Shown piece by piece: positions 25,102-50,879 of a DNA stretch of 64,000 nucleotides. Numbering within the stretch: the first letter of the stretch is position 1; each line of letters begins with the position of its first letter. The notes beneath the pieces were generated by a model. It was not told the origin of the DNA. It worked only from the letters and a program-made list of their open reading frames with translations, and searched no databases. The stretch is from the IMG/VR virus record IMGVR_UViG_3300018432_000014, positions 1 to 64,000 of that record; one strand, written 5' to 3'. This DNA comes from a virus. The position numbers and the translations under genes were made by a program.

Positions 25102-27313
25102 ATGAACGCGCCGATCAAGCCCGTCGACACGAGTACACTCGAGGGGTACGTCGCGCAAGCCGCGAGCCTGATCGTCTCGCGCCGGGCAGAGACGGCCGAG
25201 GATTGGCGACTGCTCTTCATTTGGTTGCTCGGTTTCAGCTCGGGGCATGTGCTGCGATTGCGCGCGATGCTCAAGCAAGGCCGCTTGAATGATCCGGCTG
25301 CGATCGAGGCCGCGCTCGACGAGCTGCAGGTCGAGCTAGAGCAGATCCGAAAGGCGCATCTATGAGCGCCAAACCTGAATCGACGGTCGAGGCGGACGGC
25401 GGCAAGCGCACGCTCTCGATCTTTTACAAAGAGCTGCCCGATGGTCACGACGTCACGGTCTACCGCATGGCGCTCGGGCGCGCGCGCATCTGTCTGGGTT
25501 GGGTCGACGACGAGGTCAACGTGCTCGATGCGTATTGCTACGACGATCCGGCGCTTGCCTGCGTGGCGGCCGAGCGTTGGTCGGGCGAGGGCGATCCGAT
25601 CGATGGCTGGACCCGACACATCAACTCGGGTCGCAGGCGAATCGATGGCGACCCGAACAAAGAGAGCGTGCGTTGGTGATGGCGCTTGGCCCTGGAAAAT
25701 ACGATCACATCTGCACTCGGATCATGGAGGTGTACGGCGCGGAGGTCGCGATGGCGATCGTAGTCGGCGGTACCAACGGGACCGGGTTTAGCTGTCAGTT
25801 TCGGATCGGCTCGCGCGACGAGCTGCCTGATGTCGTGAGTGCTGCAGTGCATGCGCTTCGCACCGTGGCCGACGAGATCGAGGCCGACGCATCTCGAGGA
25901 TTAGCCGATGCATGACAATTGGTTCGAGATGATCGAGCTGGTGCGTGTGGATGAAGCCGACTCTAGATCAAGTGAATGAAGTGTTCTTATGGCTTGTATT
26001 CATGCGAGTTCTGCGCGGCATGCCGCCCGTCGATCTCGAGACCGTTTTACTTGGGGGATTTGCGTTGATGGTAGTCGCGTTGTCTCATGCGGTGAGATCC
26101 AAATGTTAGCGGTGAGAGTATGACGCGGCGTCAATGCAAACTATGCCCGTGGAAGGTGTCGACCGATCCGCTCGACATACCGGGCGGCTACGAGGTCGCG
26201 TTGCACGAGCATCTACGTAGGACGATCGCCGATCGCGCTCGATTCGAAGATCTGTTGAGCGACAAGCCTCTGCGCATCATGGCGTGTCACGAGAGCAATC
26301 CAGATCGCCCGATCCCGTGCGTGGGTTGGCTCGTGAATCAACTCGAGCGGAACAACTTGCCGCTGCGGTTTGCGATGATCAAGGGTCGGATTGATTGCGA
26401 CGTCGAGTTGGTCGGTCCGCAGCACGAGAACTTCGAAGACACTTTGCCAAAGAGGCGTACTTGATTGATCGCAACCGGGCTCTCGACATTTCGAACGACG
26501 TCGATTGCTTTCTGAAAGAGCTGTGCGCGCGCTACCCCGAGTACGCGATCCTCGTCGTGGTCGCGGACCTCGACGATGGCAACGTGTTCGTGACTACGCC
26601 CGTAGTCGCAGAGACGACGGCTGTATTACTTCGCGCTGCAGCAAACCAGATGCTCAACACGCCTATCGATCTAAGTGATAACGACGAGGTTAGTTAGATG
26701 CCGATGCTGCGAATGCTAATGAAACCAGATGAGGTCAACTCGTATCTCCTCGAGCATCATTTGACCCGGGGCTACGCGACGATCGACGTCGCGTTGATGC
26801 AGAGCGGCGGTATGGGCAGCGGACAACCGGCCGTGTTGCTCGTGCTCGAGGTCGACGGGCGAAAGGTTGTCGCCAAGACGTCGCTGCAGATCCTCGAGAC
26901 GATGACGAGCGCGATGTGCGCCGCGTCGGGCGTGAAACGAGCGCCATGAGTGAGGTCGGCAAGCGCTTGCTCGCAGCGGTCGGCGTGTTGTCACTCGCGC
27001 CGATCATCTTGCCGCGCGTCGAGCTGAATACGACTCAAGCGTTCGGTTTCGGTTGGTGTTGCGCGTGCCTCGTCGTGTTCGGTCGCATCGTCCGCCCGGT
27101 CGAGAAGCGATGACGCCGGGGGAACATGTTCGGCAAGTCGAGCACGCTCGCGAATGCGTGATTTCGGCGCTCGTGTGCATTGAGCAGCGCGAGTTCATCG
27201 GCGCTTTCATTCTGTCGGCTGCCGCGGTTGTTGCGCTGTCGCATGTCGTCGGCAAAGCCGGGCTTGGCGCCGCTCGAGTGATCGTGGCAAAAGAGTTCAG
27301 CTCGCGCGCATGA
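25102..27313 (+). other. Run of small hypothetical genes downstream of terL
   Basis: ORFs 25102-25365, 25362-25679, 25679-25915, 26120-26464 (CxxCPW..MACHES..CVGWL), 26461-26697, 26698-26949 and others. Confidence 0.6.
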
Positions 27314-27524
27314 GTCGCAGTCGGCGGCGTATCGTGCCGACCGAGCAACCGAGTCGCAGCGCAAGTTGCACGGCTGTCATTTGCCCGGTGAGCACGCGTG
27401 CGAGATCGCTCGGCTGAATCACGAGCGTCGGTCGACCGACGTGCACGCCATTCGCCCGAGCTTTGCGAATGCCCTTTTTCGTGGCATCGGAGATCGCGTT
27501 TCGGCATTGGTCGCAGATGCTCAT
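27297..27524 (-). CDS. Small HTH protein resembling a resolvase C-terminal DNA-binding domain
   Basis: TKKGIRKARANGVHVGRP..TAVQLALRLGCSVGTIRRRL. Confidence 0.65.
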   Translation of the reverse strand: MSICDQCRNAISDATKKGIRKARANGVHVGRPTLVIQPSDLARVLTGQMTAVQLALRLGCSVGTIRRRLRLMRAS

Positions 27525-28123
27525 GATCCGGATGCTTTGCGATACGATGGAGCGTGAGTGTTGATCGGGTCGTGTTCCCTTACCAAGCCGAAGACCTCGG
27601 CTCGGTCAACGCTCACTTGCTTGCGCGCGCGCCGAGTCGCGAGCGTGAGCGCCCGGATGCAGGCGCGATGCTTCGTGCTGCCGTGGCGTAGCGGCTGCAG
27701 TGGTGACGGGCAGTGCTCGTAATCGCACCAATGCAGGGTCCTCGGCTTGGGCTCTCGAGGCCGCAGCCGAGCACGAGCCTCGGCTACGGCAGCTCGTGCG
27801 CGCGCGGCCCGCATTTCGGCCAGTCGCGCCGCTCGGGCTGCCATGATGTCGTCGTGAGCAAGCACGCGTTGCAACTCGACGATTGCGAGCCGCTTGGCCC
27901 TGCCTGCGGCCTCGGGCGTGTCACCGAGTAGCTCACCAGCCTCGGCCGCAGTGAAGCCGCCTAGCGCCAGCCAGAGGGCACGACGGGCCCCTTCTGACAG
28001 GCGCCGGAGCGTCGAGTAGAAGTGCAGCGCATCCTCGGGCGACAGGCTTTCACGCCACGTCGACCCGAGAGATGCGATGGCGAGCGGTGGTCTGATGCGC
28101 ATGAGGACCCTGATCCACGTCAC
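27521..28123 (-). CDS. Protein with sigma70 region 4 (ECF-like) HTH
   Basis: LRRLSEGARRALWLALGGFTAAEAGELLG.T. Confidence 0.55.
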   Translation of the reverse strand: MTWIRVLMRIRPPLAIASLGSTWRESLSPEDALHFYSTLRRLSEGARRALWLALGGFTAAEAGELLGDTPEAAGRAKRLAIVELQRVLAHDDIMAARAARLAEMRAARARAAVAEARARLRPREPKPRTLHWCDYEHCPSPLQPLRHGSTKHRACIRALTLATRRARKQVSVDRAEVFGLVREHDPINTHAPSYRKASGS

Positions 28124-30680
28124 GACTTGTCGGCTTGTTCACTCTCGAGCTGCGCCAGATGGTTTTTTAGCATGGCGATTTGGCTAAGCCGATCGATCGA
28201 AGACGAGTGATAGACGCTATCGAGGCGATGGTCTGTGATCAGCAACAGAAACGACTCGGTTCTGTAGAGCATCTGCATCACGGTGTCCGAGATCGCGCGC
28301 AACTTGCTTGAGAGAGCATCTGGACTGTCGGGCTCGTGCGAGCTGGTAGACTTGCCTTCTTTGCGGATGAGCCATTCGTTGATCTGTCGGATGCGGTTGA
28401 CCGGATACGCTCGCGGGTGATCGGCCGCCTGAACGTGCGCGAGAGCTGCGACGAGTAGCTCGTCGATGAGAATGGTCTCCATGCCAAATTCCTCACCCGC
28501 GAGGCTGGCGATCTTCTGTGCACGGACGATCGTCTCGTTGAAATCCTCGGGGGCGCGCCCGAGGATCGCGTTGACGTAGTCGTCTTTTGCATTCGGGCGC
28601 CAGAGCTTTCGCTTGCTCATGACGACTGCTCCGGCACCTTGATCGGCATCGGTCCCATAGGCCCGACCTTCGCATCACGATTGCGCTCGTCGTGCTTGTC
28701 GAGCAACTCGAGGGCCTTGCGTACGCGATCGGGATCGCTCTGGATCAACTCCTCGAGCTGCAGCGATGCGATCTGCGTTTTGATCTCGGCGATCGAGGCT
28801 TCGTGCTCGCGTTGCTTCGCGGTCAGTAGCTCGATCTCGCGAGCGGCGTTGCGCGGCTCGGCTGCGATGACAGCCACTCGTGTCCGTGGTCGATACGCGC
28901 GCTCGCGTGGCGCTCGAGGCGCTCGAGGCGCTCGAGCTGTTCCCGTGCGAGCTTTGGGTTTGGCAGTAAAGTACGCCTCGGCTTCGCGGTCGAGCGCGAT
29001 GCGCTCGCTCTGGCTCAACGCGGTTCGGCTGATCGCCTGCTTCGCGATCCCGACCGTTGCGTAGGTGCCGGACGTGATCTTCGCGTGCATGGTCTTGAAC
29101 GTCATGAGTGGCTTGCTCTTCATGGCTTGCTCTTTTCGGTTGAGTTGGACTCGGGGTTACGATTGTTGCTCGGTGAGTTGTCGCGCCAGCGTTGCAGCGC
29201 TTCGTCTTCGGTCGTGCCGCGACCGGGGGCTCGATACGAATCGTCTCTTGACGAGACCATGCTGCATGCACACCAAGCCGCGAAGTTGCCGCCCGCTTCG
29301 CGCACGACGGTGACAGCGTGCGCGCATCGCGGACAGCGGGCTTTCATGACTTGCGGTGCTTCTTGCCTGGCTTCTTGGGCCGCGCACTCTCGATCCTCGA
29401 GAGCGTCTCGACGAACGTAGCGTGAGCGAGTTTGGCATCAGCGATGCTTGAGGTTGCGATCGAGCTTTCCTCGGACGGTAGCCATTCGGCGGCGTTGAGC
29501 ACGCGGGTCTCGAATACGAATCGACCGCGACCGACGCTGCTATCGACGCCAGTCCAGATCGTCGAGACGCAAATTTCGCCGATCATGGTCGACTCGATCT
29601 GAGTGTAACTTTTGTCCGCGTGCAGCTCGCGCCACGTCTCGAAGTCGATCGGGATGAGGTCGCGATCGTAGAAGTCGAGCGTGCTCGTGCGCTTCAACTC
29701 TGAGCTGATCCGTTTGACCTCTCGCTCGAAGAGAGTCGCGGGTTGAGCCGCAGCCGCCTCGGTTTCGCACAATAGCTCGAGACCGCCGAAGATCGTCGAG
29801 TCGCGCATACGACTGTGTTCCAATTCGTTGAGGTAGCCTCGAGTCACAACCAGGATGTCGGGCGAATCGGGTTCGAAAAACTCTTCGAATGCGGATTCGA
29901 CCGCAGCCTCTCGCGATCCGAACATGTCTTGCAGGGTCGGCAGCCCAAGCCCGCCGAGTGGGCCTCGCTCGTGCTGCTCCCACCGATCGATCCTCTCGGA
30001 TGCGAGGATGCGCGCGCGTTGCTCGGTGAGGTCGACGAAAATGCGATCGCCTACCTCGGGCGTGTGTTGCGGTCTGTAGTCGGGTTGTAATCGCGCCGGC
30101 TCGGCTTCGACCACCATCAGATCGCCAGACATCGAGGGGATCTCGATCGGCACTGCACCATCGCGACTGTTCCAAAGCGACTCGCGTTGCCCGTCTTCGC
30201 TGACGTAGGTGACGAAGCAATAGGCCAACGAGTGCTTGTGCCGCCCGCGAATCATTTCGCGCTCACGCGGGCACCGACGTTGTGCATCGTCTCGACGCGC
30301 ACGATGCCGCGCGTTTTCGGCGCGTCTCCGCAGAGCGAGCGATACTCGTCAACCCACGGGCCGAAATGCAGGGTCCGCTCGTTTTCGATCCGAGCTTGCA
30401 CGTGCGTGTAACGCGTAAAGCGCTCGACGCTCATCTGCAGCATGAATCGCGCTCGCGGCATCGAATGCCAGACGATCACCGGCGCGTTGTCGGGATAGGC
30501 GCTCTGCAGCACGGCATCATCGGTCTCGATCCACGCGTGCGCGAATCGGACGCCGTTCATTACGCAGATGCCATGCACGAGATAGAACCGCTCACGCATG
30601 GCGTGCGGTACGTCAGTCATGAAATCGAGCGTGTCGTCGAAGCAGGTGTGCGTCGGCCGCAGAGTGTGCATGTCGCGCAC
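28120..30680 (-). other. Leftward operon of hypothetical genes
   Basis: Coupled ORFs 30252-30680, 29344-30255, 29120-29347 (Zn ribbon), 28617-29123, 28120-28620. Confidence 0.65.
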
Positions 30681-31195: not shown

Positions 31196-31234
31196 ATCCT
31201 AGCTCGGTCTTTGAAAAGCGCTAGCGGTATTTCA
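31196..31234 (-). promoter_or_regulatory. Class I repeat element copy 1
   Basis: TGAAATACCGCTAGCGCTTTTCAAAGACCGAGCTAGGAT on the minus strand. Confidence 0.85.
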
Positions 31235-31244
31235 CAAGTGCGCG

Positions 31245-31460
31245 TTACTCTGCAGGAACCTCGATCGGCAATCCGAGCCGCTGTCGCATGTAGTACGAGA
31301 GCGTCAAGTTGAGCGCGCGAGCTTCTTTCTTCAGCTGCGCCTTCTCGCTGACGGTCAACCCGATGAAAGCCGGAGAGCCCTTGCGTTTTTTGCCGAGACG
31401 CGGTCGACCCGCGCCCTCACGTGCTCCGCCTTGTCCGGCGTGAGCGATTTTCTTAGTCAT
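31245..31460 (-). CDS. Small RHH-like DNA-binding protein, candidate regulator of the class I element
   Basis: GGAREGAGRP..FIGLTVSEKAQLKKEARALNLTLSYYMR; ATG 45 nt from class I copy 2. Confidence 0.7.
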   Translation of the reverse strand: MTKKIAHAGQGGAREGAGRPRLGKKRKGSPAFIGLTVSEKAQLKKEARALNLTLSYYMRQRLGLPIEVPAE

Positions 31461-31466
31461 GCTCAA

Positions 31467-31505
31467 CCCTGGATCGTGCCAATGAAAAGCGCAAGCGGTA
31501 TTTCA
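31467..31505 (-). promoter_or_regulatory. Class I element copy 2 (degenerate -10)
   Basis: TGAAATACCGCTTGCGCTTTTCA, 45 nt before ATG 31460. Confidence 0.8.
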
Positions 31506-31509
31506 GACT

Positions 31510-31800
31510 GCCCGGATTCGCGGCCCGGATGTGCGAAGAAGGGCAGCATGTGCGCGCGCGAGAGAGGATCCGAGCGGGATCCCCGTCGGCGGGCCCGCGC
31601 CGCTCGAGACCGCGCCGGGGGAACATCCGATCGCGGCCGAGCACGGGCCCTCGAGCCCGCGTGCGACCTGCGACCGCGCCGACCTTGCCGAGCCCGCGCC
31701 GGCTTGTGCCCGGGCCCCTCGAGCCCGCACGGGCCCGCGCCGGGGCATCTTGCGACCGCGCCGCTCGAGAGGCCCGCGCCCCTCGAGCCCGGGGCTCGTC
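31510..31800. repeat. Non-coding GC-rich tract of GGCCCGCGCCG / CTCGAG units
   Basis: Many degenerate copies; the same units recur at 33915-34070, 35710-35800, 47340-47390 and 50670-50830. Confidence 0.75.
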
Positions 31801-32043
31801 TCAGACCGCCTTGAGCTTGCGGCCGACCGCGATCACCTCTTGACGCATGCCGTATCGCAGTTGCGAGAGCAGATTGCGCGACCATTCGGTATCGCGAATC
31901 GCGAGCAACGTCGCTGCGAGCTTCTCGACCGAGGCGTAACCCGCGCCGCTTCCGTCGCCCTCGCCATCCTCGCCCGCTGCGTTGACGCATCCGACGAGAT
32001 TCGTTGCCGTGTTCTTGAGAGCGTTGAGGTTCGTCTTGTTCAC
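31801..32043 (-). CDS. Cassette gene, hypothetical 80 aa
   Basis: GTG start 6 nt after the class II -10 box. Confidence 0.7.
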   Translation of the reverse strand: MNKTNLNALKNTATNLVGCVNAAGEDGEGDGSGAGYASVEKLAATLLAIRDTEWSRNLLSQLRYGMRQEVIAVGRKLKAV

Positions 32044-32049
32044 ACCCTA

Positions 32050-32078
32050 AGCATGCCGGATCCGGGACACTAAGACAA
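32050..32078 (-). promoter_or_regulatory. Class II promoter
   Basis: TTGTCT-17(tagtgtcccggatccgg)-CATGCT-6-GTG. Confidence 0.65.
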
Positions 32079-32123
32079 GAGCAGAGGCCCGATCCCGAGC
32101 CGATCATGCGGGTCGTGTAGGTA

Positions 32124-32162
32124 TGAAATACCGCTTGCGTCTTTCAAGGCCGGAGCTAGAGT
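32124..32162 (+). promoter_or_regulatory. Class I element copy 3
   Basis: TGAAATACCGCTTGCGTCTTTCAAGGCCGGAGCTAGAGT; ATG 48 nt from its start. Confidence 0.85.
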
Positions 32163-32171
32163 CAAAAACAG

Positions 32172-32474
32172 ATGGACACCAACGAAACAACGCAGTCGTT
32201 TGAGGCAACTGTCGAGGCATATGTTGCCGCTCTCAATGCTCGTGCGAACGAGCTGATCGCAGCCGGAAAGGCGCCTCTTTACCTGAGCTTCGGCTTCACG
32301 ATGGGGCCAAAGCACGCGCGGATCTTCGCGAATCACGGCGGCACGAGCCGCAGCTCGCGCGCCTTTTTCAGCCGAGACGGCCTGATCCGTCGCGCCGACA
32401 GCTGGAAAGCGGCGGGTCGGATCCTCGGCAAGCATGACAGCGCCGACGCTTTCGCCTACATCTTCGGTCGTTGA
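32172..32474 (+). CDS. Cassette gene, hypothetical 100 aa
   Basis: Follows class I copy 3; GLIRRADSWKAA motif. Confidence 0.75.
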   Translation: MDTNETTQSFEATVEAYVAALNARANELIAAGKAPLYLSFGFTMGPKHARIFANHGGTSRSSRAFFSRDGLIRRADSWKAAGRILGKHDSADAFAYIFGR

Positions 32475-32527
32475 TCCGCGCCGGGGCCCTCTTGAGAGGG
32501 CCCGCGCAGACAATCGACCCGCGCCGG

Positions 32528-32566
32528 TGAAATACCGCTAGCGCTTTTCAAGCGCTCAGCTAGAGT
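32528..32566 (+). promoter_or_regulatory. Class I element copy 4
   Basis: 45 nt before GTG 32573. Confidence 0.9.
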
Positions 32567-32572
32567 CAAGAC

Positions 32573-32860
32573 GTGGACAAGAAGACGACAACGAAATCGA
32601 AGAAGTTGCAGATCGTGCTCGCGAAACTCGTCGACGATGTGCGGGTGATTGATCCCGGTGCTCGCGACCTCGGGATCGGGCCGAAGTTCGAGGCGATCAA
32701 GCGGCCTGTCGCGCTAGTTTGGATTCGCAGCGGCACCGGCGCCGACCTCGAAAAGGCGCAGAAGTTCGCGCCGACCGAGGGTTACACGGTCTTTGTGTAC
32801 GCGCCGACCGAGCGCAACCCGCTCGACCGAGCCCGCGCCGACATTGCGGCGACCGCCTGA
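32573..32860 (+). CDS. Cassette gene, hypothetical 95 aa
   Basis: Start fixed by the class I spacing. Confidence 0.75.
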   Translation: MDKKTTTKSKKLQIVLAKLVDDVRVIDPGARDLGIGPKFEAIKRPVALVWIRSGTGADLEKAQKFAPTEGYTVFVYAPTERNPLDRARADIAATA

Positions 32861-32872
32861 GCCGAGGCCCGC

Positions 32873-32895
32873 GCCGCTCGAGATTCTCGAGCGGC
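32873..32895. repeat. Linker hairpin GCCGCTCGAGA-W-TCTCGAGCGGC (also at 34432-34454 and 51457-51479)
   Basis: 11-bp perfect arms; lies between a stop codon and the next class I element in all three copies. Confidence 0.85.
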
Positions 32896-32907
32896 TGCCG
32901 GGAGTTG

Positions 32908-32946
32908 TGAAATACCGCTAGCGCTTTTCAAGATGCGAGCTAGGAT
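32908..32946 (+). promoter_or_regulatory. Class I element copy 5
   Basis: -10 box TAGGAT; 45 nt before ATG 32953. Confidence 0.9.
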
Positions 32947-32952
32947 CTAGGC

Positions 32953-33102
32953 ATGGACAACGCAGTAACACGGTACGAGATCGCGGTCGCCAAGATGAAA
33001 GACGCGGAAGCGCGCAACCTGTCACGCACGACGATCGCCAAGCGTTGGCGCGAAGTTTTCGCGGCAGAAGACGCTCTGAAAGCTCGCGATTTCTACCGCT
33101 GA
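32953..33102 (+). CDS. Cassette gene, 49 aa (MDNAVTRYEIAVAKMKDAEARNLSRTTIAKRWREVFAAEDALKARDFYR)
   Basis: Translated by hand; missing from the ORF track; start at the conserved 45-nt position. Confidence 0.75.
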   Translation: MDNAVTRYEIAVAKMKDAEARNLSRTTIAKRWREVFAAEDALKARDFYR

Positions 33103-33139
33103 AAACACCGGGGCCCTCTCGAGGGCCCGCGCCGCTCGG

Positions 33140-33159
33140 GTGTAGCCCCGGGGCCACAC
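33140..33159. repeat. Dispersed palindrome copy (GTGTAGCCCCGGGGCCACAC)
   Basis: Inside a cassette linker. Confidence 0.85.
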
Positions 33160-33181
33160 GGCAGCAATCGACCCGCGCCGG

Positions 33182-33220
33182 TGAAATACCGCTAGCGCTT
33201 TTCAAGACCTGAGCTAGAGT
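33182..33220 (+). promoter_or_regulatory. Class I element copy 6 (consensus)
   Basis: TGAAATACCGCTAGCGCTTTTCAAGACCTGAGCTAGAGT; 45 nt before ATG 33227. Confidence 0.9.
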
Positions 33221-33226
33221 CAAAAC

Positions 33227-33457
33227 ATGGAAACGAAATCGACCCGCGCCGCTAGGTTCGACGCTCTTCTTGCGGCAGCTGCCGCCCGCACACCGGGATA
33301 CGCTGCAGCCGCCGCCCGTTGCGCGGCAGAAAACGCCGCTCTCAAGACGCGCGACCTCGCCGACGCACATCGTGCGAGCCGTAGCCCGCGACCCGACGGC
33401 GGCGAGGATGACGGTTGGGGTGACTATTGCTCGCCCCGATCGGCTTTCGAGGTGTGA
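33227..33457 (+). CDS. Cassette gene, hypothetical 76 aa
   Basis: Its TGA stop is the first triplet of class I copy 7. Confidence 0.7.
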   Translation: METKSTRAARFDALLAAAAARTPGYAAAAARCAAENAALKTRDLADAHRASRSPRPDGGEDDGWGDYCSPRSAFEV

Positions 33458-33493
33458 AATACCGCTAGCGCTTTTCAAGACCTGAGCTAGGAT
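33455..33493 (+). promoter_or_regulatory. Class I element copy 7
   Basis: 45 nt before ATG 33500. Confidence 0.9.
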
Positions 33494-33499
33494 CTGAGC

Positions 33500-33721
33500 A
33501 TGGACACGAAGCAAGCCCTCAAGTTGATTTACCGCCACACACACCGCGATTCGCGCGGAACACTCTCGGATTGCAAGACGATCCTCGTCTACCGCAACGG
33601 GACCTGCCTCGTGCCGCTCGAGGCCCTCACGGCTGCCGAGATTGCCGAGCGCTTGCCGCTCGCAGAACGCCGCGAAGCCGAGCGGCTCGAGAAGATCGCA
33701 GCGAAAAAGGCGGCGAAATGA
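33500..33721 (+). CDS. Cassette gene, hypothetical 73 aa
   Basis: Start fixed by the class I spacing. Confidence 0.75.
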   Translation: MDTKQALKLIYRHTHRDSRGTLSDCKTILVYRNGTCLVPLEALTAAEIAERLPLAERREAERLEKIAAKKAAK

Positions 33722-33912
33722 TCACCCGCGCACAACTCGACTCGCACGTCTGCGACCGATCGCGATCGTGGTGGGCACACGACGCACAAGGGATCCCGCT
33801 CTGTCGGGTCTGCGACACCTGCGAGCGTGCCAAGCTCTCGCGATACCGGCCCGAGATCCTGAGCGGATACGATCAATCTGACGTCGACGAGCCGATCGAG
33901 GCAGACGACTGA
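33718..33912 (+). CDS. Small Cys-rich protein (64 aa)
   Basis: ATGA overlap with the previous gene; DAQGIPLCRVCDTC..RYRPEIL. Confidence 0.7.
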   Translation: MITRAQLDSHVCDRSRSWWAHDAQGIPLCRVCDTCERAKLSRYRPEILSGYDQSDVDEPIEADD

Positions 33913-34072
33913 TCCCGGGGCCCTCGAGCCCGTGCCGGGCCCGGCAATCGGAGCCCGGCCCTCGAGCCCGTGCCCGGCGACCCGCGCCGCTCGAGAGCTG
34001 CAGCTCGGGCCCGTGCCGACTCGAGGGCCCGCGCCGCTCGAGAAGCCCGCGCCGACAATCGACCGGGGCCGT

Positions 34073-34111
34073 TGAAATACCGCTAGCGCTTTTCAAGGCC
34101 TGAGCTAGATT
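34073..34111 (+). promoter_or_regulatory. Class I element copy 8
   Basis: -10 box TAGATT; 45 nt before ATG 34118. Confidence 0.9.
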
Positions 34112-34117
34112 CAAAAC

Positions 34118-34423
34118 ATGGCAAACGAAGTCGCAAACACCATCGTCGCGCAACTCAGCAATCGCGGTCTTTTCATGCTTGGCGCGAAAGACCTCGTCGC
34201 AGGCGAAAACAGCCTCACCTTCAAGATCGGCCGGAACAGCAAGACGATCTCGCACATCCGGATCACGCTCGATGCGAGCGACACCTACACGGTCGAGTCG
34301 ATCCGAGTGCGCAAGAGTGCGGGCGTGCCGGTCGTGCGGATCGTCGAGACCTGCGGCGACGTGTATGCGGACAGTCTCAAGCGCACGATCGAGACGTTTA
34401 CCGGCATGTACATGAGCTTGTGA
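34118..34423 (+). CDS. Cassette gene, phage-type hypothetical 101 aa
   Basis: VANTIVAQL..MLGAK..DTY..DVYAD.L..IE..TGMY.SL. Confidence 0.8.
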   Translation: MANEVANTIVAQLSNRGLFMLGAKDLVAGENSLTFKIGRNSKTISHIRITLDASDTYTVESIRVRKSAGVPVVRIVETCGDVYADSLKRTIETFTGMYMSL

Positions 34424-34466
34424 GAGGCCGCGCCGCTCGAGAATCTCGAGCGGCTGCCGGGGCTTG

Positions 34467-34488
34467 TGAAATACCGCCAGCGCTTTTC
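34467..34488 (+). promoter_or_regulatory. Class I element copy 9, truncated (palindrome only, no -10)
   Basis: TGAAATACCGCCAGCGCTTTTC runs directly into GGGCCCGCGCCG. Confidence 0.75.
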
Positions 34489-34519
34489 GGGCCCGCGCCG
34501 AAAATCGGCTCGATGGCCC

Positions 34520-34548
34520 TGGACATCAGGGCCTGCATCCGGGACCAC
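34520..34548 (+). promoter_or_regulatory. Class II promoter
   Basis: TGGACA-17(tcagggcctgcatccgg)-GACCAC-6-ATG 34555. Confidence 0.6.
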
Positions 34549-34554
34549 TAAACG

Positions 34555-34815
34555 ATGGCAAGCAAGAAAAAACCGACGGACCTCACGACTCAGATACTGA
34601 TCCAAATTCGCGATGAGATCCGGCAGACAAACGAGCGACTCGAGCGACTCGAGCGCCGGCAGACCGACTCGGAAACGCGATTGGCGACCGAGCTTGTCGC
34701 GCTCGCGAAAGCCGTCAACGATGTACGCGTGCTGATCATCGACATGCGTCAGGATCAGCGCCGCATGGAAGCGCTCGAGGAACGCGTGCTCCATGTCGAG
34801 CGCAAGGTGAGCTGA
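34555..34815 (+). CDS. Small coiled-coil protein, 86 aa
   Basis: Heptad pattern; class II promoter upstream. Confidence 0.75.
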   Translation: MASKKKPTDLTTQILIQIRDEIRQTNERLERLERRQTDSETRLATELVALAKAVNDVRVLIIDMRQDQRRMEALEERVLHVERKVS

Positions 34816-34839
34816 TTCTCGAGCGGTCTCGAGCGGTTG

Positions 34840-34878
34840 TGAAATACCGCTAGCGCTTTTCAAAGACCGAGCTAAGCT
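34840..34878 (+). promoter_or_regulatory. Class I element copy 10
   Basis: -10 box TAAGCT; 45 nt before ATG 34885. Confidence 0.9.
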
Positions 34879-34884
34879 CTGGTT

Positions 34885-35061
34885 ATGACAACGACGAGCA
34901 ACGCGAAGACCTGGATTGTGGCCGAGTATCGCAACGACGACTTTTTCGGGCAGACCGAGAACCTCACTCAGAAAGAGGCGACCGACCTCGCAAACAAGAT
35001 GAGGGCAGCCGGTCTCGAGGTGACGATCGCAGACGGCCCGGGCGACCTCGAGAGCTTCTGA
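34885..35061 (+). CDS. Cassette gene, 58 aa (MTTTSNAKTWIVAEYRNDDFFGQTENLTQKEATDLANKMRAAGLEVTIADGPGDLESF)
   Basis: Translated by hand; missing from the ORF track. Confidence 0.75.
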   Translation: MTTTSNAKTWIVAEYRNDDFFGQTENLTQKEATDLANKMRAAGLEVTIADGPGDLESF

Positions 35062-35123
35062 GACCCGATCGGGCCCGGCAAACACCGGGCCCGCGCCGTT
35101 TCCGAGCCGCGCAGACGACCTCG

Positions 35124-35162
35124 TGAAATACAGCTAGCGCTTTTCAAGACTTGAGCTAGAGT
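35124..35162 (+). promoter_or_regulatory. Class I element copy 11 (TACAGC variant)
   Basis: 45 nt before ATG 35169. Confidence 0.9.
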
Positions 35163-35168
35163 CAACTC

Positions 35169-35708
35169 ATGGACAGCAACGCAACCGAGATGTCGACCGA
35201 GGCCAAAAAGATTCACCCTTTCGAGCGCAACGGTCTCGGGATCGCGCCCTTCAAATACGTAGGGTTCTACGTCTCGAAATACCAGGCGATCCCGGGCGAC
35301 CCGAGCTGCCCGATTCAGCCCGGCAGCTCGTGCGACCATTGCGGCACGGCGATCATGAATGTCTGCCGGATCAAGTCGGCCGACGGTCGCGAATTCAAGG
35401 TCGGATCCGACTGCGTTGGCAAGGTCGGGCGCGCGCACGATGCCGCTCTCTTGACCGCCGTCGAGGCCGCCGCCCGGAAACGTGCCGGCGCCGCTCGTAA
35501 GAGCCTCGCAGCGGCCCGCGCTGCAGAGCTGGCGACCTTGCTCGCAACCGAGACGGTCCGGGCGACCCTGGCCCTGCAGCCGCACCCGCACCCCTACCGC
35601 GCCGGGCTCGGTGACACGCTTCTCGACGCGATCGAGTTCTCGGTCAAGCGCAGCGGCGCCGCTGGCATCGCTCGCACGCTCAAGACGGTCAAGGCGCAGA
35701 TCGCCTGA
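35169..35708 (+). CDS. Cassette gene, Zn-binding hypothetical 179 aa
   Basis: CDHCGTAI..FKVGSDCV. Confidence 0.8.
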   Translation: MDSNATEMSTEAKKIHPFERNGLGIAPFKYVGFYVSKYQAIPGDPSCPIQPGSSCDHCGTAIMNVCRIKSADGREFKVGSDCVGKVGRAHDAALLTAVEAAARKRAGAARKSLAAARAAELATLLATETVRATLALQPHPHPYRAGLGDTLLDAIEFSVKRSGAAGIARTLKTVKAQIA

Positions 35709-35830
35709 CCGGGGCCCCTCTCGAGGGCCCGAGCGGCTCGAGGGCAGGAGGCCCGCTGCCCGAGCATGTCGCTCGAAATCCGCGCCGCTCGAGGGCTGCA
35801 GCGGTTCGCAGAGAAATCGACTCGGTCAGA

Positions 35831-35869
35831 TGAAATACCGCTAGCGCATTTCAAGACCTCGGCTAGGCT
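35831..35869 (+). promoter_or_regulatory. Class I element copy 12
   Basis: -10 box TAGGCT; 45 nt before ATG 35876. Confidence 0.9.
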
Positions 35870-35875
35870 CTAGAC

Positions 35876-36667
35876 ATGGACACGAACAAACCGACTCTCA
35901 GCGTGAATCTCATCGCAATCGTCGACGGCTACCTCAGCGGCAAGCGCCGCGAGAAGTTTCGCGACAGCATCTCGATTCTCAACCGCTCGCTCGCACAAGG
36001 TGCCTGGACACCGCGGGGCTCGGTCAAGGCGAGCGCTGGTTTCTATCAGGGTCTCGCGAAAAAGATCGGCAATCTTCAACCTTACGAGCTTGACGCATGC
36101 GTACGCTACGGCCAGCCGATGCGGTCGGTGACACTTACAGACGAGATGTGCATGCAACTGTCGTCGTCTCGCGTGTTGCGCGCTTGGGTCACGCTCTGCT
36201 CGGAAGTCGCTGCAGCTCGCGCGTTTCTCGATGCGGCCCGCCCGACGCCGGTTGTCACGGCGATCGGTCTCTCGCCGAAAGTCACGAAGACTCTGAAAGA
36301 CTGCAATCTCGACATCGATCTCGCGACGATCAAGCCCGCGAAGATCAGCTTTTACGAAGTGCAGGCGCGCGATAAGGCCGGCGAATTGCGGGTTGATCGC
36401 GACGGTAAGCCGGTGATGGAGCGAGTCTATTTCGTCGACTGGAGCGCGGGTTGCCTTTTCAACCGGTCGCGGTTTGCGATGGGTGACGGCTGCCACGCTT
36501 GCGGCAAGACGATCCCGAGCGGCCGATTCGTGCCGATCGAGGCGAGCTGCAAGAAGCTCGGGCAGAAGGTCGCCCTCTGGCTCGGCTGCGACTGCGCGCG
36601 GAACATCTTTGGCGTCAAGGACATCGGCATCGACAAGAATGCGAAAGCGCCGACCGCGGGCGAGTGA
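35876..36667 (+). CDS. Cassette gene, hypothetical 263 aa with C-terminal Zn motif
   Basis: CHACGKTI..WLGCDCA. Confidence 0.8.
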   Translation: MDTNKPTLSVNLIAIVDGYLSGKRREKFRDSISILNRSLAQGAWTPRGSVKASAGFYQGLAKKIGNLQPYELDACVRYGQPMRSVTLTDEMCMQLSSSRVLRAWVTLCSEVAAARAFLDAARPTPVVTAIGLSPKVTKTLKDCNLDIDLATIKPAKISFYEVQARDKAGELRVDRDGKPVMERVYFVDWSAGCLFNRSRFAMGDGCHACGKTIPSGRFVPIEASCKKLGQKVALWLGCDCARNIFGVKDIGIDKNAKAPTAGE

Positions 36668-36708: not shown

Positions 36709-36737
36709 TTGCATACGGGTCCCGCATCCGGGACACT
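36709..36737 (+). promoter_or_regulatory. Class II promoter
   Basis: TTGCAT-17(acgggtcccgcatccgg)-GACACT-6-ATG 36744. Confidence 0.7.
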
Positions 36738-36743
36738 AAAGGT

Positions 36744-37052
36744 ATGGATTACGTCAGCAAGACGGGGCTCGCGAAAATGCGCAAGGTCGTGAGAGAGACT
36801 CGAGCGCTTTATGCGGAGGCCCGATGGGTTGCGCTCGCAGCCGGCAGACAGGCTCGGTCGCGTGACACGAGCCGAGCCCGGCTGATCCTCGAAGACGCAC
36901 TCGACGCGGCTCTCGAGGCTCGCCAGACCATGCGGCATTACGCAGGCGTGCTTGCCAAGATGGAGGCTCTCCCGATCGAGCCGCATGCAGGTCGAGTGAG
37001 CCCGGCTGCGCTCGCTCGGCTGCGCTCGCTCGGCCGACTCAATCCGGCTTGA
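36744..37052 (+). CDS. Hypothetical 102 aa
   Basis: ATG at the class II position. Confidence 0.7.
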   Translation: MDYVSKTGLAKMRKVVRETRALYAEARWVALAAGRQARSRDTSRARLILEDALDAALEARQTMRHYAGVLAKMEALPIEPHAGRVSPAALARLRSLGRLNPA

Positions 37053-41333: not shown

Positions 41334-42144
41334 ATCAGACGAACACCGAATGTTACGAGTGCGGTGGCACGGATGCGCAGCGACCGGGTTTGCCATGCGA
41401 TGCGTGCATGGAGCGAGCTATTCCGGGTTGGCTGCGTCTCCGAGACGATCACGAGCGGCTTCTCGCTGCGGGCGTGCATCCGGACATCGCATCGCGTCGT
41501 CTGTGCGTGGCGGTCGAGCACGGAGATTACGACTGATGAATCACTCGAGCAGACCCGCAGAGCCAGAAGAGATGAGCCCGTTTCGCTCGAGGCTTGAATC
41601 GGCAGCCGTCAGGCTCGAGGTGCTCAGGTCACGATCGAGCCCGACGGTCGCCATGGACATCTTGCGCGAGATCGTCGCGGTTCGCGAGGCCGCGACACGA
41701 CTCGAGGGCGAGCCCTGCCACGCATGCGCAACGCTCGCCTCTGCGAAATGCAGATGGTGCGCGGGCAAGGGGGCGCTATGAGCGCACGACAGTTGCTCGA
41801 GGTGCTCGGTGTCTACGCGTTTCGACGCGCGCGTTTCGGGCGACAGGAACACACGCGTCGCCCGATCATCTTCACTGGCGTTAGCGTCGGTTGGTTCGCG
41901 TTCGGTCGATTCAAGCTCGACACCGAGTGGCAACCAGAGCCTCGACCGCCGATCGATTTCGACGAGATGCTTGCCGAGGTCGACCCGAAAGAGGGGACGA
42001 CGTGATCCTCGATTCGGTACGTCTGCCGATGAGGTCCGTGGAAAAATCGGCGGTTCGACGCGTCTTGACGCTTTTCCTCTTGATCAAGCGTCGGTTCCGA
42101 GTATGGACGCCTTTCTCGAGCGCATGCCTTGTCGGCGGTAGCAC

Positions 42145-42561
42145 GTGAGCCAGATCCCTCGACTGGTCTCGCCGACAGAGGTCATGCGAGTGCTGAGTTG
42201 CGGGCGCAGAAATGCGTATGTCGTGATGGCGCGTCTTGGCGGTCACAAGATCGAGGGCATCGGCTGGCGTGTGTCTGAGAAACGACTGCGTGAATACGTT
42301 TGTAAACTCGAGCGAGGATGTAGCGACGAATGGAAACCAAATCTCGAAAGCGAAAGAACGGCAAACGATTCTGGTACGCAACCATCCATTGGTCCGATGG
42401 ACAACGGATGTGCAGCAAGCTCGTCGCAACCCACGTTGCAGACGATGGAACTGCAGCCTCAAGAAAAGCAGCCGAGCAAAACGGCAGAGAGATCCAAAAT
42501 ACATTCGCGAATCGTCGTAGCAGCAAAGAGAGCACGCTCCTTACGCTCGAAAAGGCGATAG
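42145..42561 (+). CDS. Excisionase-like HTH protein overlapping the integrase
   Basis: LVSPTEVMRVLSCGRRNAY..WRVSEKRLREY. Confidence 0.55.
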   Translation: MSQIPRLVSPTEVMRVLSCGRRNAYVVMARLGGHKIEGIGWRVSEKRLREYVCKLERGCSDEWKPNLESERTANDSGTQPSIGPMDNGCAASSSQPTLQTMELQPQEKQPSKTAERSKIHSRIVVAAKRARSLRSKRR

Positions 42562-43454
42562 CTGATCTCGTTTTGGCAAAAACGCTTGCAGGGAAGTCAG
42601 ATGCCACTCTCGAGATCATTGCAGACAAGGCAGCTCGTCTCTTCGAGGTGTTCGGGCCCGACTGCAGGATGTACGCGATCGATCGACAGGCTGCTAAAGC
42701 CTATCTCGAGGAGAGATCGAAGCCGGATGAAAACGGAAACGTGCCAGCGGCGACGACGTTGTATCGCGAGTTTCTGATCCTCAAGCAAGCGTTCAACGAA
42801 GCCGGCATACCGCATCCCGAATGGCCCGAGATACCAGACGCGCCGCCATCACGTGATCGTATTCTTGAGGTACCTGAACAGATCAAGTTGCTTGCGGCGG
42901 TCGCACCTCAACGACGAGTGCTTGTCCAAGCGTATCTGCAGCTCGGGGGCATGCGTAAGAGCGAGCCAGAGACGATCAGTCGCGTGAATTGGAAAACACG
43001 CATGGCCACTATCAACGGCACGAAGACTAGACGATCGGTCCGTGAGGCGCCGATCCCGGATGGTCTTTATGAGTTGATGAAGGAAATGGGCGATCCGTTT
43101 CCTGGATTCGAGCCATGGGCAAACGCTGATCGTGATTTGCGTGCGGCGTGCGTGCGAGCTGAGATCCCGATCGTGAGCTTCAATGATCTGCGGCGTACAT
43201 ACGCGACGTTTATGGCGCGCTCAGGATGCCCTCAACTCTTGCTTGCTCGGTACATGGGAACAAGCGTCAAGATGATCGACGAGGTCTATGCTCGGCTCGA
43301 GGCAGAGGGCGAGCATCATCTCGCATCGGTTCGAAAGGGCGTGCCCGACCTCGAGCGACACAAGCGCAAGGCGAGCAAAGCAATCCGGGCTCGAGAGGCA
43401 CTCGCTGCGCCAATCGCGAAAGCCGTCGACAAGGCACGTGCGAAGACACCCTAG
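42330..43454 (+). CDS. int: Tyrosine integrase
   Basis: N-terminal arm-binding-like segment; GMRKSE, GTKT, NDLRRTYAT, MGTS..MIDEVY. Confidence 0.88.
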   Translation: METKSRKRKNGKRFWYATIHWSDGQRMCSKLVATHVADDGTAASRKAAEQNGREIQNTFANRRSSKESTLLTLEKAIADLVLAKTLAGKSDATLEIIADKAARLFEVFGPDCRMYAIDRQAAKAYLEERSKPDENGNVPAATTLYREFLILKQAFNEAGIPHPEWPEIPDAPPSRDRILEVPEQIKLLAAVAPQRRVLVQAYLQLGGMRKSEPETISRVNWKTRMATINGTKTRRSVREAPIPDGLYELMKEMGDPFPGFEPWANADRDLRAACVRAEIPIVSFNDLRRTYATFMARSGCPQLLLARYMGTSVKMIDEVYARLEAEGEHHLASVRKGVPDLERHKRKASKAIRAREALAAPIAKAVDKARAKTP

Positions 43455-43672
43455 CGAGCCTCGTGTTCGACGCACCATCGGATCAACTCGCTTCGCGGTA
43501 TGATGAGTCGCGAAGCGCCCGACAGCTTGGATCGCATCGCTCTCAACTCACCGGCTGCGATCAAGCGCTGCAACGACCTCGGGTGCATGCACAGTGCGCG
43601 CGCTGCATCTCGCAGGCCGACCGTTGCGGGCAGTGACGATTCGAGATCGCGCAGATGAGGGGCGATCGCTAC
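43451..43672 (-). CDS. MerR/Xis-type HTH protein (start uncertain)
   Basis: GLRDAARALCMHPRSLQRLIAAGELRA..IIPRSEL. Confidence 0.6.
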   Translation of the reverse strand, partial: VAIAPHLRDLESSLPATVGLRDAARALCMHPRSLQRLIAAGELRAMRSKLSGASRLIIPRSELIRWCVEHEAR

Positions 43673-44401
43673 GGGTACCCTCGACGGGCTCGACGTGCTG
43701 CGACCTCTGCGATGTCTGCCTCGCTCGGCTGAACCTCTGAGCGAGGCAGTGCTTTTTTTGCGAGAGGCTTTTCGTCGAGTGTGGGTCGAGCCGCAAACTT
43801 TTGAGCGAGTAGCACTGCCACGCGACGAGCAATGCGCTCGATGTCTTCGTCGCTGAGCTTGACGTCGATCATGGCTTGGCCCGTTTGCGCAACGTCTGGC
43901 GCGCGTCTTTGAGAGCAGCTGCAGCTTCGTCGGGTCGCAGCTTTGCAAGCTCAGTTTTTGCGGTGCGCTGCACACGGGCGGCGATCGTTTGCATGCGTTT
44001 GGCTGCGGGGCTCAGGTCGAGCCGGTCGTATGGTCCTTGCGCGCGGCGCTTGCCCTCGACCGCTCGCACGAGCTGAGCGAGCAGAGCCTCGATTGCGCAG
44101 AGCCGAGCGTTGAGTTCCGGGTCCATGGTCAATCCGCTAGCACGGTTGGCACGAGGCCCGTACACGGCCCGGGCGAATCGCACAGGGCCCGAATCTTCCA
44201 GAGACGGCAGAATCTCAGATCTGACGACTAGCATAGTCCCAAAACAGTCGAGGTTTACAGCGTGATCAGCATGCTAAGAGATCGCGACCTCAACACGTCC
44301 CGCATCCGGGGCGCACTTCTCTGCAGTTTGAGGGCCAAAGTGACACTATCAAAAGTGTGTAGTGTTGGATCTGCGACACAACACAATTTCGATTTTAGGT
44401 C

Positions 44402-44621
44402 TGGGCTCGCTCTGGGCTCCGAAAACGACCCCTGCGAGACCTAAAGGAACAGGTGCGCGCGAATCCTACACTGTCTTTTGCCGTGAAATCATTGGATAAA
44501 ATAGTGGAGTCAGGGGGGATCGAACCCCCGGCCTCCGCACTGCCAGTGCGAAAGTCATTCCGAAATCCCCTGTGATTGCAGCTAGTTACAGCCGCGAAAT
44601 TCTTGGGCTCGCTCTGGGCTC
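44402..44621. mobile_element. attP region: tRNA-derived core flanked by 18-bp direct repeats
   Basis: TGGGCTCGCTCTGGGCTC at 44402-44419 and 44604-44621; lower-GC non-coding DNA about 1 kb from int. Confidence 0.75.
44505..44550 (-). other. 3' half of tRNA-Ala(GGC), attP core
   Basis: Minus strand CGCA-CTGGCAG-TGCG GAGGCC GGGGG-TTCGATC-CCCCC TGACTCCA: anticodon arm, T arm and acceptor 3' strand; 5' half absent. Confidence 0.85.
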
Positions 44622-44827
44622 AGGCTGCCGCGGGGTTGTGGGCCGTTTGAGCCCGTCCTGCCTACCAGCGCCGTGCTCGGGCTTTCTGAGCCCGAGCCTC
44701 TCAGCGGTCTTACCACGGCAGGGCCCGACCGACCTAGCGGCCTGCCCGAGACCGCCCCTATGGCGAGCCCGAGGGGCCTGCGATTGGGCTTCTCCCGAGC
44801 CCGTCTCGAGGGCTACCGTCGGGCCCC

Positions 44828-47293: not shown

Positions 47294-47299
47294 ACAACA

Positions 47300-47328
47300 A
47301 CCGTAGCTCATCCGGGACACTAACGCAA
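47300..47328 (-). promoter_or_regulatory. Class II promoter
   Basis: TTGCGT-17(tagtgtcccggatgagc)-TACGGT-6-GTG. Confidence 0.65.
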
Positions 47329-47522: not shown

Positions 47523-47529
47523 GTCTGTT

Positions 47530-50873: not shown

Positions 50874-50879
50874 CTTGGT

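Follow-up and report, generated by a model that had tools for sequence, protein, structure and literature searches.

Many copies of one regulator site or promoter stand over small early genes in the case of the phiC31 conserved inverted repeats and early promoters, the Cluster A stoperators, the T4 MotA boxes and the SPO1 host-takeover module. Here we analyze a further array of repeated promoter-like units. The described system that it resembles most is that of the promoter-early stem-loops (PeSLs) of T4-type phages, which are presented in PMC2839356 and PMC4122927 as repeated promoter and stem-loop units located upstream of ORFans, mainly in hyperplastic regions. The array studied here lies at 31196–36667 of a 64-kb stretch (hereafter the window, whose coordinates are used throughout) that constitutes the first 64 kb of the 73,487-bp IMG/VR record IMGVR_UViG_3300018432_000014, termed G000. 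This record represents an uncultured high-GC soil phage from a lineage of about 100–110 kb that is unrelated to T4. The array is built from a 39-bp element, named the class I unit, in which a 23-bp dyad-symmetric core is followed by a TAnnnT hexamer and, in most copies, at a fixed distance by the start codon of a small gene. We consider it probable that the unit joins a 23-bp regulator site to a leaderless promoter of sigma-70 type that is driven by its −10 element, and that its copies together form both a regulon and a recombination hot spot.

The likeness to PeSLs consists in short repeated units upstream of ORFans and in indels and replacements between close relatives that are bounded by the unit, both of which are found here (compared with PMC2839356 and PMC4122927). 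However, PeSLs have the full set of sigma-70 −35 and −10 elements, a Shine-Dalgarno sequence with a leader, and an AT-rich upstream part, whereas the class I unit has a −10 element (14 of 16 copies) and no −35 element in G000 and its closest relative G001, neither Shine-Dalgarno sequence nor leader, and a 23-bp dyad. The PeSL stem-loop may have a counterpart in 5 of 10 spacers that fold with z ≤ −2.4 and in a perfect 10–11-bp stem located 13 nt before three units, without U-tracts; the PeSL hosts are T4-type phages, whereas the present array belongs to an unrelated soil phage of high GC content and ~110 kb. Since two PeSL features fail and the phage is unrelated, we file the module as a leaderless, operator-bearing variant of the PeSL kind, and by analogy it appears to work most like the PeSL cassettes of T4-type phages. 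The start-associated sequences of Cluster K mycobacteriophages and their extended forms (SAS/ESAS) are likewise oriented repeats at a fixed short distance before non-structural, unrelated genes; however, SAS are asymmetric 13-bp elements with an AGGAG core, located 3–7 bp before the start and proposed, in PMC3203893, to act in translation, and the class I unit has no such core. Of the two partial analogues named in a preliminary description of this DNA, PeSLs are thus retained in part and SAS are not. Cluster O mycobacteriophages share with our array many dyad repeats (17 bp) for a predicted dimer and predicted leaderless SigA promoters, although most of their sites are off promoters and few if any are in rearrangements, according to PMC4351075, whereas here the site is within the promoter and marks breakpoints. 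The intergenic repeats of halovirus HF2 (PMC8707807) are near-identical, promoter-acting and of two classes in one virus, as here; in contrast, they are archaeal AT-rich promoters with positions strongly conserved within the genus, while the present units are sigma-70-type, with fluid content and order. In open-access literature text, no account was found of a phage array in which leaderless promoter cassettes are repeated, and the module opens no new category of system.

The 23-nt core, TGAAATACCGCTAGCGCTTTTCA, has 16 matches in the window at up to three mismatches, 14 on the plus and two on the minus strand, and none in 100 dinucleotide-preserving shuffles; the full 39-mer has nine matches at the same tolerance with none expected. 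No further core copy is present in the rest of the 73,487-bp record, and a backwards control pattern also gave no match. Eight copies are identical to the core, five have one mismatch, two have two, and one has three. Every copy is oriented toward its downstream gene, and successive copies in the main array are 273–707 bp apart. The outer arms TGAAA/TTTCA are centred on core position 12, and the inner part CGCTAGCG, a perfect 8-bp palindrome, on position 12.5. The TAnnnT hexamer occupies unit positions 34–39 in 14 of 16 copies (all except 31505 on the minus strand and the truncated copy at 34467), and in 12 of 16 an ATG or GTG stands exactly at +45 from the first T, i.e., 6 nt past the box. 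Among the remaining four, the start codon is at +48 (32124) or +46 (47484), the truncated copy at 34467 has no real open reading frame (ORF), and the minus-strand unit at 31234 is followed by a 43-nt leader with GGAG before an ATG at 31146. The six nucleotides between box and start codon are variable and contain neither a Shine-Dalgarno sequence nor room for one. The number and positions of the copies, the start-codon distances of 45, 46 and 48 nt, the imperfect palindrome in the first 23 nt, the box 6 nt before the start and the lack of a Shine-Dalgarno sequence, as given in the preliminary description, were all recovered.

In IMG/VR, an exact-pattern scan detected the motif in a single further record, G001, which is rated complete at 110,308 bp and contains 22 copies at up to three mismatches and 23 at up to four, with TAnnnT in 21 of 23 and a start codon at +45 in 17 of 23. 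From metagenomes we obtained in addition a fragment of a third relative (L032), which is ~82% identical to G001 and keeps a copy in front of a pentapeptide-repeat gene; only single chance matches without the box were seen in the remaining 29 metagenome stretches and in all 28 species-genome stretches. The consensus over the 39 copies of G000 and G001, TGAAATACCGCTaGCGctTTTCAAg.cc.gaGCTAGa.TC....caTGGAcA, consists of two conserved blocks with a variable 8-nt stretch between them. The box always reads T-A-(G/A)-n-n-T, in the forms TAGAGT, TAGGAT, TAGATT, TAAGCT, TAGGCT, TAGTCT, TAGGTT and TAGTGT, and TAGAAT in L032; thus T-12, A-11 and T-7 are fixed, only the inner box positions vary, and a G is kept at −14. 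Fixed T-12, A-11 and T-7 with free inner positions are the classical −10 signature. The core stays within three mismatches in 38 of 39 copies despite a synonymous divergence (dS) of 0.36–1.65 between orthologous cassettes; because the core differs by no more than 3–4 positions while neutral divergence is large, it is under a constraint of its own. As RNA, the class I unit folds no better than shuffled sequences (z about 0), and since the RNA form does not fold, the 23-bp symmetry points to a dimeric DNA-binding protein rather than to a hairpin.

The genes behind the units are real and unrelated to one another. The main-array ORFs encode 49–263 aa, all cassette ORFs are present in the mechanical ORF list (the preliminary description had two as missing from its own ORF track), and at E ≤ 1e-3 the cassette proteins show no match among themselves within the genome, which upholds the earlier statement that the cassette genes are unrelated. 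In all nine cassette pairs common to G000 and G001, the ratio of nonsynonymous to synonymous divergence (dN/dS) is 0.16–0.33, therefore we conclude that the cassette ORFs are translated and constrained.

The genomes of G000 and G001 are colinear at 67–92% identity, and their arrays are 69–86% identical and rearranged. The 263-aa cassette (35831) is the last one in the G000 array and the second in G001 (1005), and the 73-aa gene at 33455 is found two cassettes later in G001 (3670). Four G000 ORFs have no G001 counterpart, namely those headed by class I units at 33182, 50835 and 51157 and the ORF starting at 34555, which is headed by a second type of promoter, class II; conversely, five G001 array cassettes (2182, 2639, 3980, 4323 and 4731) are missing from G000. 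Each homology block opens either 2–38 nt ahead of a unit or on the start codon itself, and its other end lies close to a stop codon. For instance, the block 33721–34488, matching G001 2878–3691, stops inside the truncated core at 34467, past which G000 has other sequence and G001 an intact unit with its gene. The preliminary description had taken the cassettes to be mobile, expecting their content and order to vary between relatives; both do vary, with breakpoints at the unit or the start codon, which favours shuffling. As judged from the aligned genomes, it is at the module that genes have been gained, lost, moved or re-headed among the relatives. The G001 record ends may be an assembly break rather than physical ends, because its "direct terminal repeat" belongs to a tandem repeat with a 15-bp period (G001 1–190 and 110190–110308) located between divergent promoters.

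The repeat-gene-repeat-gene layout and the breakpoints at the repeat could also mean that the element is chiefly a mobility or structural one, such as an attC-like site, a miniature inverted-repeat (MITE) or repetitive extragenic palindrome (REP)-like element, or an SAS-like RNA start signal, with its promoter likeness incidental. We consider this very improbable, since the distance and orientation to the start codon are fixed, the unit forms no stable single-strand fold and contains no Shine-Dalgarno-like sequence, and the array has no recombinase; the only integrase (42330–43454), ~6 kb away, is absent from G001 and from two more distant relatives, G002 and G003. Moreover, variant copies recur at orthologous sites (three deviations at 32124 and at G001 645; CAAGCG at 47484 and at G001 18426), thus the copies have been inherited vertically and not scattered by frequent transposition. 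Excised mini-circles between neighbouring units are a feature of PeSLs; in Logan contigs from two soil DNA runs, every repeat is a point of breakage, and two short-sided joints (side 21 nt) are not separable from assembly artefacts. With respect to integrons and CRISPR (clustered regularly interspaced short palindromic repeat) arrays, to which the locus had been likened, the likeness of layout stands and that of the defining features does not. Integrons combine IntI, attI and Pc with promoterless cassettes and folding attC sites, whereas here each cassette has its own 5′ promoter-like unit without a fold and no local integrase; CRISPR arrays have short non-coding spacers of like length, whereas the distances here are 273–707 bp and contain ORFs under purifying selection.

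Besides class I, the genome contains a second promoter class. Class II sites consist of TTGACA or TTGCAT, 17 nt with the palindrome G.CCCGcat.CGGGAC, an nAnnnT hexamer, 6 nt and an ATG, and were located in the window at 30734, 32054, 34531, 36720, 44311 (minus strand), 46121 (minus strand), 49574 and 54146. Since the boxes of both classes stand at an equal distance from the start codons, a leaderless start is the economical reading for both. Three orthologous genes are headed by class I in one phage and by class II in the other: the 95-aa gene (class I at G000 32528, class II at G001 1858), the 102-aa gene (class II at G000 36720, class I at G001 6272), and the 60-aa minus-strand gene (class II-like at G000 ~47300–47340, class I at G001 18034). 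In these re-headed orthologs the similarity starts at the start codon or within a few codons of it. Many leaderless genes open with ATGGACA(A/G/C)C, encoding Met-Asp-Asn/Ser/Thr, whichever promoter class precedes them, and the same holds in the G002 and G003 arrays; in addition, about 15 nt after the ATG are common to three otherwise unrelated cassettes (33182; G001 3980 and 4323). The ATGGACA-type start could reflect what leaderless initiation requires, or it could be a scar of recombination. Upstream of the amidoligase promoter in G001, two class II-type sites flank a tandem heptamer, GGCAGAC, of ~7 copies (~18290–18340), which is absent at the equivalent G000 place.

Between the cassettes, GC-rich stem-loops follow the stop codons, and in 5 of 10 spacers the fold is more stable than in shuffled sequences (z from −2.4 to −4.5). 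One junction type is formed by a perfect 10–11-bp stem, GCCGCTCGAGAWTCTCGAGCGGC, followed by 13 nt and then the unit; it occurs at 32863–32907, 34425–34466 and 51448–51491 (z −3.0, −3.3 and −4.5, respectively) and at five places in G001. The first of these, the hairpin GCCGCTCGAGATTCTCGAGCGGC on the plus strand, stands right after a stop codon. Such stem-loops, which may attenuate read-through, stand at or near the ends of most cassettes. The linker between stem and unit reads ...GGGnnTTG in G000 and ...GCAAGTTA in most G001 copies, orthologous cassettes included; this difference by genome, even at orthologous cassettes, indicates that the junctions have been homogenised within each genome.

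We next describe more distant members of the clade. No close relatives were found in viral contigs via the neighbouring 415-aa gene; the large terminase TerL has 61 homologs at E ≤ 1e-20, many of them on 60–120-kb contigs, and at least 299 related loci in IMG/VR. At up to three mismatches, the exact motif is absent from five TerL-related records. G003 (109.5 kb, TerL 74% identical) has an array of its own, with eight motif matches, six of which are clustered at 25968–28453. Its unit, TGAAATCGTGTTGCACGGATTCAAGACTGCGCTACAGT-6-ATGGACA, agrees with class I in length, outer arms, the TTCAAGAC block, TAnnnT and ATGGACA, and differs in the inner palindrome (CGTG..CACG); in four copies the ATG is exactly 6 nt past the box, and a −35-like TTGCAC stands 16 nt upstream of TAnnnT. 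This G003 unit is referred to as class I′. In G002 (82 kb, 75% complete, TerL 76%), a module of class II type heads the array; it reads TTGCAT-16-TACTCT-6-ATG and its spacer contains TCTGTCCCGCATCCGG. No class I-like unit was found in this genome. Among 13 G000 array genes, three are detectable in G002 and one in G003. Given these two arrays, the architecture is a feature of the clade, whereas the recognition sequence is lineage-specific and the gene content highly fluid.

On this basis we propose the following mechanism. Positions 1–23 of the unit (about −45 to −23) would be a dyad site for a dimeric or tetrameric regulator, located over the usual place of a −35 element, and the variable 8-nt spacer would join it to the −10 block. 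GCTAGnnT would act as a sigma-70/SigA-type −10 element (TAnnnT) with G at −14, from which the transcript would begin on the A or G of the ATG or GTG; the spacing between −10 and start codon has the geometry of sigma-70/SigA leaderless promoters. Of the operator and leaderless promoter suggested in the preliminary description, the promoter geometry and the long, nearly unchanged dyad-symmetric block have been substantiated, while a transcription start site at the start codon is a prediction. At least 14 genes or operons of G000 stand behind the module and would thereby form one regulon. Because the module needs no leader or ribosome-binding site, the junction of promoter and gene is a single point, and modules would be exchanged by homologous or microhomology recombination between their copies. 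A repressor-type operator is favoured, putatively bound by the NikA-like ribbon-helix-helix (RHH) protein encoded at 31245–31460 on the minus strand.

The gene for this 71-aa protein lies between the two leftward units and its product is 90% identical in G001. The Pfam NikA-like family matches the protein at E 5e-4; the protein family has 40 members at E ≤ 1e-3, and 35 of 38 aligned members match NikA-like and the other three RHH_1, while the family profile matches NikA (2ba3) in the PDB at E 2e-4. In the AlphaFold2 model, with an overall predicted local distance difference test (pLDDT) score of 79, helices 37–49 and 54–61 score above 90 and the strand is not formed in the monomer; the top Foldseek rows are NikA, AtaR, KacA, CopG and Arc, with weak E-values as expected for 45 residues. 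Thus, the protein is a predicted member of the RHH family. The core upstream of its gene (31467–31505, minus strand; one mismatch) places the ATG at 31460 at +45, and the same arrangement is found in G001 (counterpart at 110102, minus strand); in both phages the core is at the usual distance from the ATG and lacks the GCTAGnnT box. Such a site without a consensus −10 box would fit autoregulation. In G003, a 36%-identical RHH homolog belongs to an operon driven by a class I′ unit; the arm GGAREGAGRP is present in both proteins, and the strand reads NRVTLNLTD in G003 vs. PAFIGLTVS in G000. No RHH homolog was detected in the 75% complete genome of G002. The RHH protein is therefore named here as a candidate binder of the 23-bp site, on circumstantial grounds.

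Several observations weigh against this reading as a whole. The link to the RHH protein draws on adjacency and on four genomes only, including the incomplete G002. The exact motif is confined to two full genomes and one fragment, and 4 of 16 copies are not leaderless by position. No RNA run was found to contain the array, so promoter activity and start sites are predicted. Only 5 of 10 spacers reach z ≤ −2.4, and the spacer hairpins are devoid of U-tracts and are not among the eight terminator-like sites found (5.1 expected); given the missing U-tracts, a terminator role is a presumption. Upstream of the class I box, no −35-like hexamer was found at 16–18 nt, where CTAGCG occupies the 17-nt position, and a simple sigma-70 scan calls none of the class I copies. 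Because a recognisable −35 element is missing, unaided host polymerase may not use the unit, which favours an activator or a phage sigma factor. The 23-bp block would then be an activator site that replaces the −35 element, and the cassettes would belong to the delayed-early or middle phase, induced by a phage protein expressed from class II promoters, which have TTGACA or TTGCAT and could act first. The position of the block agrees with this, as MotA at T4 middle promoters (MotA/AsiA) and PhoB-type boxes occupy the region of about −45 to −23. We nevertheless regard activation as rather unlikely. The G003 module has TTGCAC at 16 nt, and its palindrome would occlude a working −35 element, as an operator does; the RHH gene, with a site and a poor −10 box, is more naturally taken to repress itself, most RHH proteins act as repressors, and no relative of MotA or AsiA was identified, the 101-aa cassette protein A6 reaching only Z 5.2–5.8 to MotA among many tied rows. 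Overall, the −35-like hexamer of G003 and the autoregulation-like layout favour a repressor, and the missing −35 of G000 and G001 favours an activator.

A phage sigma factor has to be weighed in the same way, since an ECF-like (extracytoplasmic function-like) sigma gene shows the same pattern of presence and divergence as the RHH gene; its distribution fits the motif equally well, which also counts against the proposed regulator. The gene is located at 79322–80080 in G001 (Sigma70_r2, E 4.9e-10), the G000 contig starts inside it (window 1–215), and it is present in five of six related records (G001, G003, G004, G005 and G006) and was not found in G002, which has no class I unit. It is fast-evolving, with 40% identity between G001 and G003, lineages whose first blocks differ. 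Under such an explanation the two blocks of the element would be the −35 and −10 of a promoter read by this factor, and the cassettes a sigma regulon. This seems clearly less probable to us than activation, as the first block, a dyad of 23 bp, by far exceeds a −35 element in length, and the −10 obeys the housekeeping TAnnnT rule with free inner positions. ECF-type promoters have their own −10 consensus and a usual spacing longer than 13–14 nt, and the ~13–14 nt from TGAAAT to TCAAG are too short for it. In addition, the sigma gene is kept in distant relatives (TerL 44–49%) that lack the motif at up to three mismatches. We thus retain the −10-driven leaderless promoter with a regulator site as the preferred explanation.

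The left boundary of the array is formed by a unit at 31196–31234 on the minus strand (no core mismatch, box TAGGAT; G001 ortholog at 109830, minus strand), which heads a leftward operon. Rightward of the RHH gene follow GC-rich imperfect repeats resembling CCCGCGCCGCTCGAG between divergent promoters (31530–31790), and an 80-aa gene at 31801–32043 (minus strand) with a class II-type site, TTGTCT-17-CATGCT-6-GTG, assigned by eye. The plus-strand cassettes begin at 32124–32474 with a unit with three core mismatches, an ATG at +48 and a 100-aa ORF (32172–32474), whose ortholog is G001 645 (dN/dS 0.20) and whose G002 homolog is headed by another promoter class. The second cassette (32528–32860; 95-aa ORF 32573–32860) has a class II-headed G001 ortholog (ATG 1882), the third (32908–33102; 49-aa ORF 32953–33102) has an ortholog in G001, and the fourth (33182–33457; 76-aa Ala-rich ORF 33227–33457) has no G001 counterpart, its stop codon being the TGA of the next unit (33455). 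The fifth (33455–33912) carries a 73-aa ORF (33500–33721) overlapped by a 64-aa Cys-rich ORF (33718–33912), and the sixth (34073–34423) the ORF of A6 (34118–34423; phrog_9437). The truncated core (34467–34489, two mismatches, no box), inside which the homology block with G001 ends, is followed by a class II-like promoter with an 86-aa coiled-coil ORF (34519–34815; ORF 34555–34815) that is missing from G001 and has a homolog in G003. The remaining three cassettes are the eighth (34840–35061; box TAAGCT; 58-aa ORF 34885–35061) and ninth (35124–35708; 179-aa ORF 35169–35708, named A9), both with G001 orthologs, and the tenth (35831–36667; 263-aa ORF 35876–36667), the last of the G000 array.

Beyond the array, the class II promoter TTGCAT-17-GACACT-6-ATG heads the 102-aa ORF 36744–37052 (36710–37052, plus strand), which is under class I in G001 (6272), and a class II-like TTGCGT-17-TACGGT-6-GTG heads the 60-aa gene at 47111–47340 (minus strand), the G001 ortholog of which is headed by class I (18034, minus strand). 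Four further class I units are located on the plus strand. The first, with a GTG at +46, heads the amidoligase gene 47530–48459 (47484–48459); those at 50835–51143 and 51157–51447 head an 87-aa ORF (50880–51143) and an 81-aa ORF (51202–51447), respectively, both found in G000 only in comparison with G001; and the unit at 51492–51530, with two core mismatches, lies upstream of a rightward block starting at 51569, possibly with a 32-nt leader.

The cassette products have few matches. In PHROGs, 10 of 11 main-array ORFs have no match at E ≤ 1e-4, and those cassette matches that exist are to families of unknown function only, the sole strong one being phrog_9437 for A6 (unknown function). None of the 11 main-array ORFs matched Pfam at E ≤ 0.001, nor did the 36744 gene or two other ORFs behind class I units. 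The host-takeover or anti-defence role proposed earlier for the cassettes thus found no family match in Pfam or PHROGs to support it. A6 has a confident model (pLDDT 91.6) with an alpha-beta5-alpha saddle that matches uncharacterised phage proteins, including those of Mycobacterium and Gordonia phages; against the PDB, nothing exceeded Z 6.6, and the MotA C-terminal/DNA-binding domain (Z 5.2–5.8) is among tied unrelated folds. An atlas search with A9 returned unnamed viral clusters only. The two largest array proteins (35169–35708 and 35876–36667) both contain, as seen by eye, a C-x-x-C-G ... G-x-D-C stretch that may be a common zinc-binding module.

The window has a G+C content of ~62%, and the completeness of G000 is estimated at 67%. 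Encoded in the window are a family-B DNA polymerase (PolB), the large terminase, a portal with a LAGLIDADG insert, a ligase and an amidoligase. The matches of TerL to cultured phages are distant (22–27% identity); Mycobacterium or Gordonia phages account for 24 of these 31 records, which is a weak hint of an actinobacterial host and not a finding. A host search by motif in 185,579 species genomes gave 28 singleton matches, none with a −10 box, a protein atlas search with the ligase returned viral clusters only and no host lead, and a family search gave no WhiB match. An archaeal host was considered, as the best cultured PolB matches are Halorubrum viruses (25% identity), and rejected because of the sigma-factor gene, the TTGACA-17-nAnnnT promoters and the non-acidic proteins (by eye).

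A 2.8-kb segment (41969–44782) with a G+C dip to 0.58 is found in G000 and missing from G001, G002 and G003; it carries the tyrosine integrase 42330–43454 (phrog_1) and tRNA-Ala(GGC) at 44504–44579 (minus strand). The segment may represent either an integration module that was acquired or a small element that inserted into the phage. Since this segment occurs in G000 only, lysogeny is not established for the lineage, and a temperate lifestyle with a lysogeny repressor was rejected. Intein-type inserts come and go (window 22955–25075 and 58189–61227), and one LAGLIDADG stretch is located in the portal; in G001 and several relatives, TerL reaches 800–1030 aa and contains Hint/LAGLIDADG domains, compared with ~570 aa for most TerL proteins. 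A dispersed 20-bp palindrome, GTGTGGCCCCGGGGCCACAC, is found at approximately 4197, 14048, 17810, 22076, 33140, 38716, 45087, 53927 and 57366, and the 11-mer TGTGGCCCCGG is counted 13 times over both strands; relatives have dispersed palindromes of other sequence in like manner, for example TTGTAACCTCGAGGTTACAA in G003.

If the module works as proposed, it would be a minimal portable unit for gene expression, ~45 bp long and free of both leader and ribosome-binding site, and would control a regulon of ~14–20 small genes without known function in a clade with at least 299 TerL-related viral loci. The PeSL idea of promoter repeats as modular shuffling sites would thereby reach beyond T4-type phages to leaderless genes and to a high-GC lineage unrelated to them. 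The occurrence of the same gene behind two promoter classes in sister phages would provide a natural experiment on leaderless expression and on the co-evolution of operator and regulator. With considerable reserve, we also put forward the possibility that leaderless modules serve as a recombinase-free route of gene capture in the clade: as the module ends at the start codon, often with ATGGACA, a recombined ORF would be expressed at once, module classes would be exchangeable, and pairs of palindrome and regulator would define specificity groups. If this is true, such groups would be comparable to the lambdoid immunity groups, across a large family of ~100-kb soil phages.

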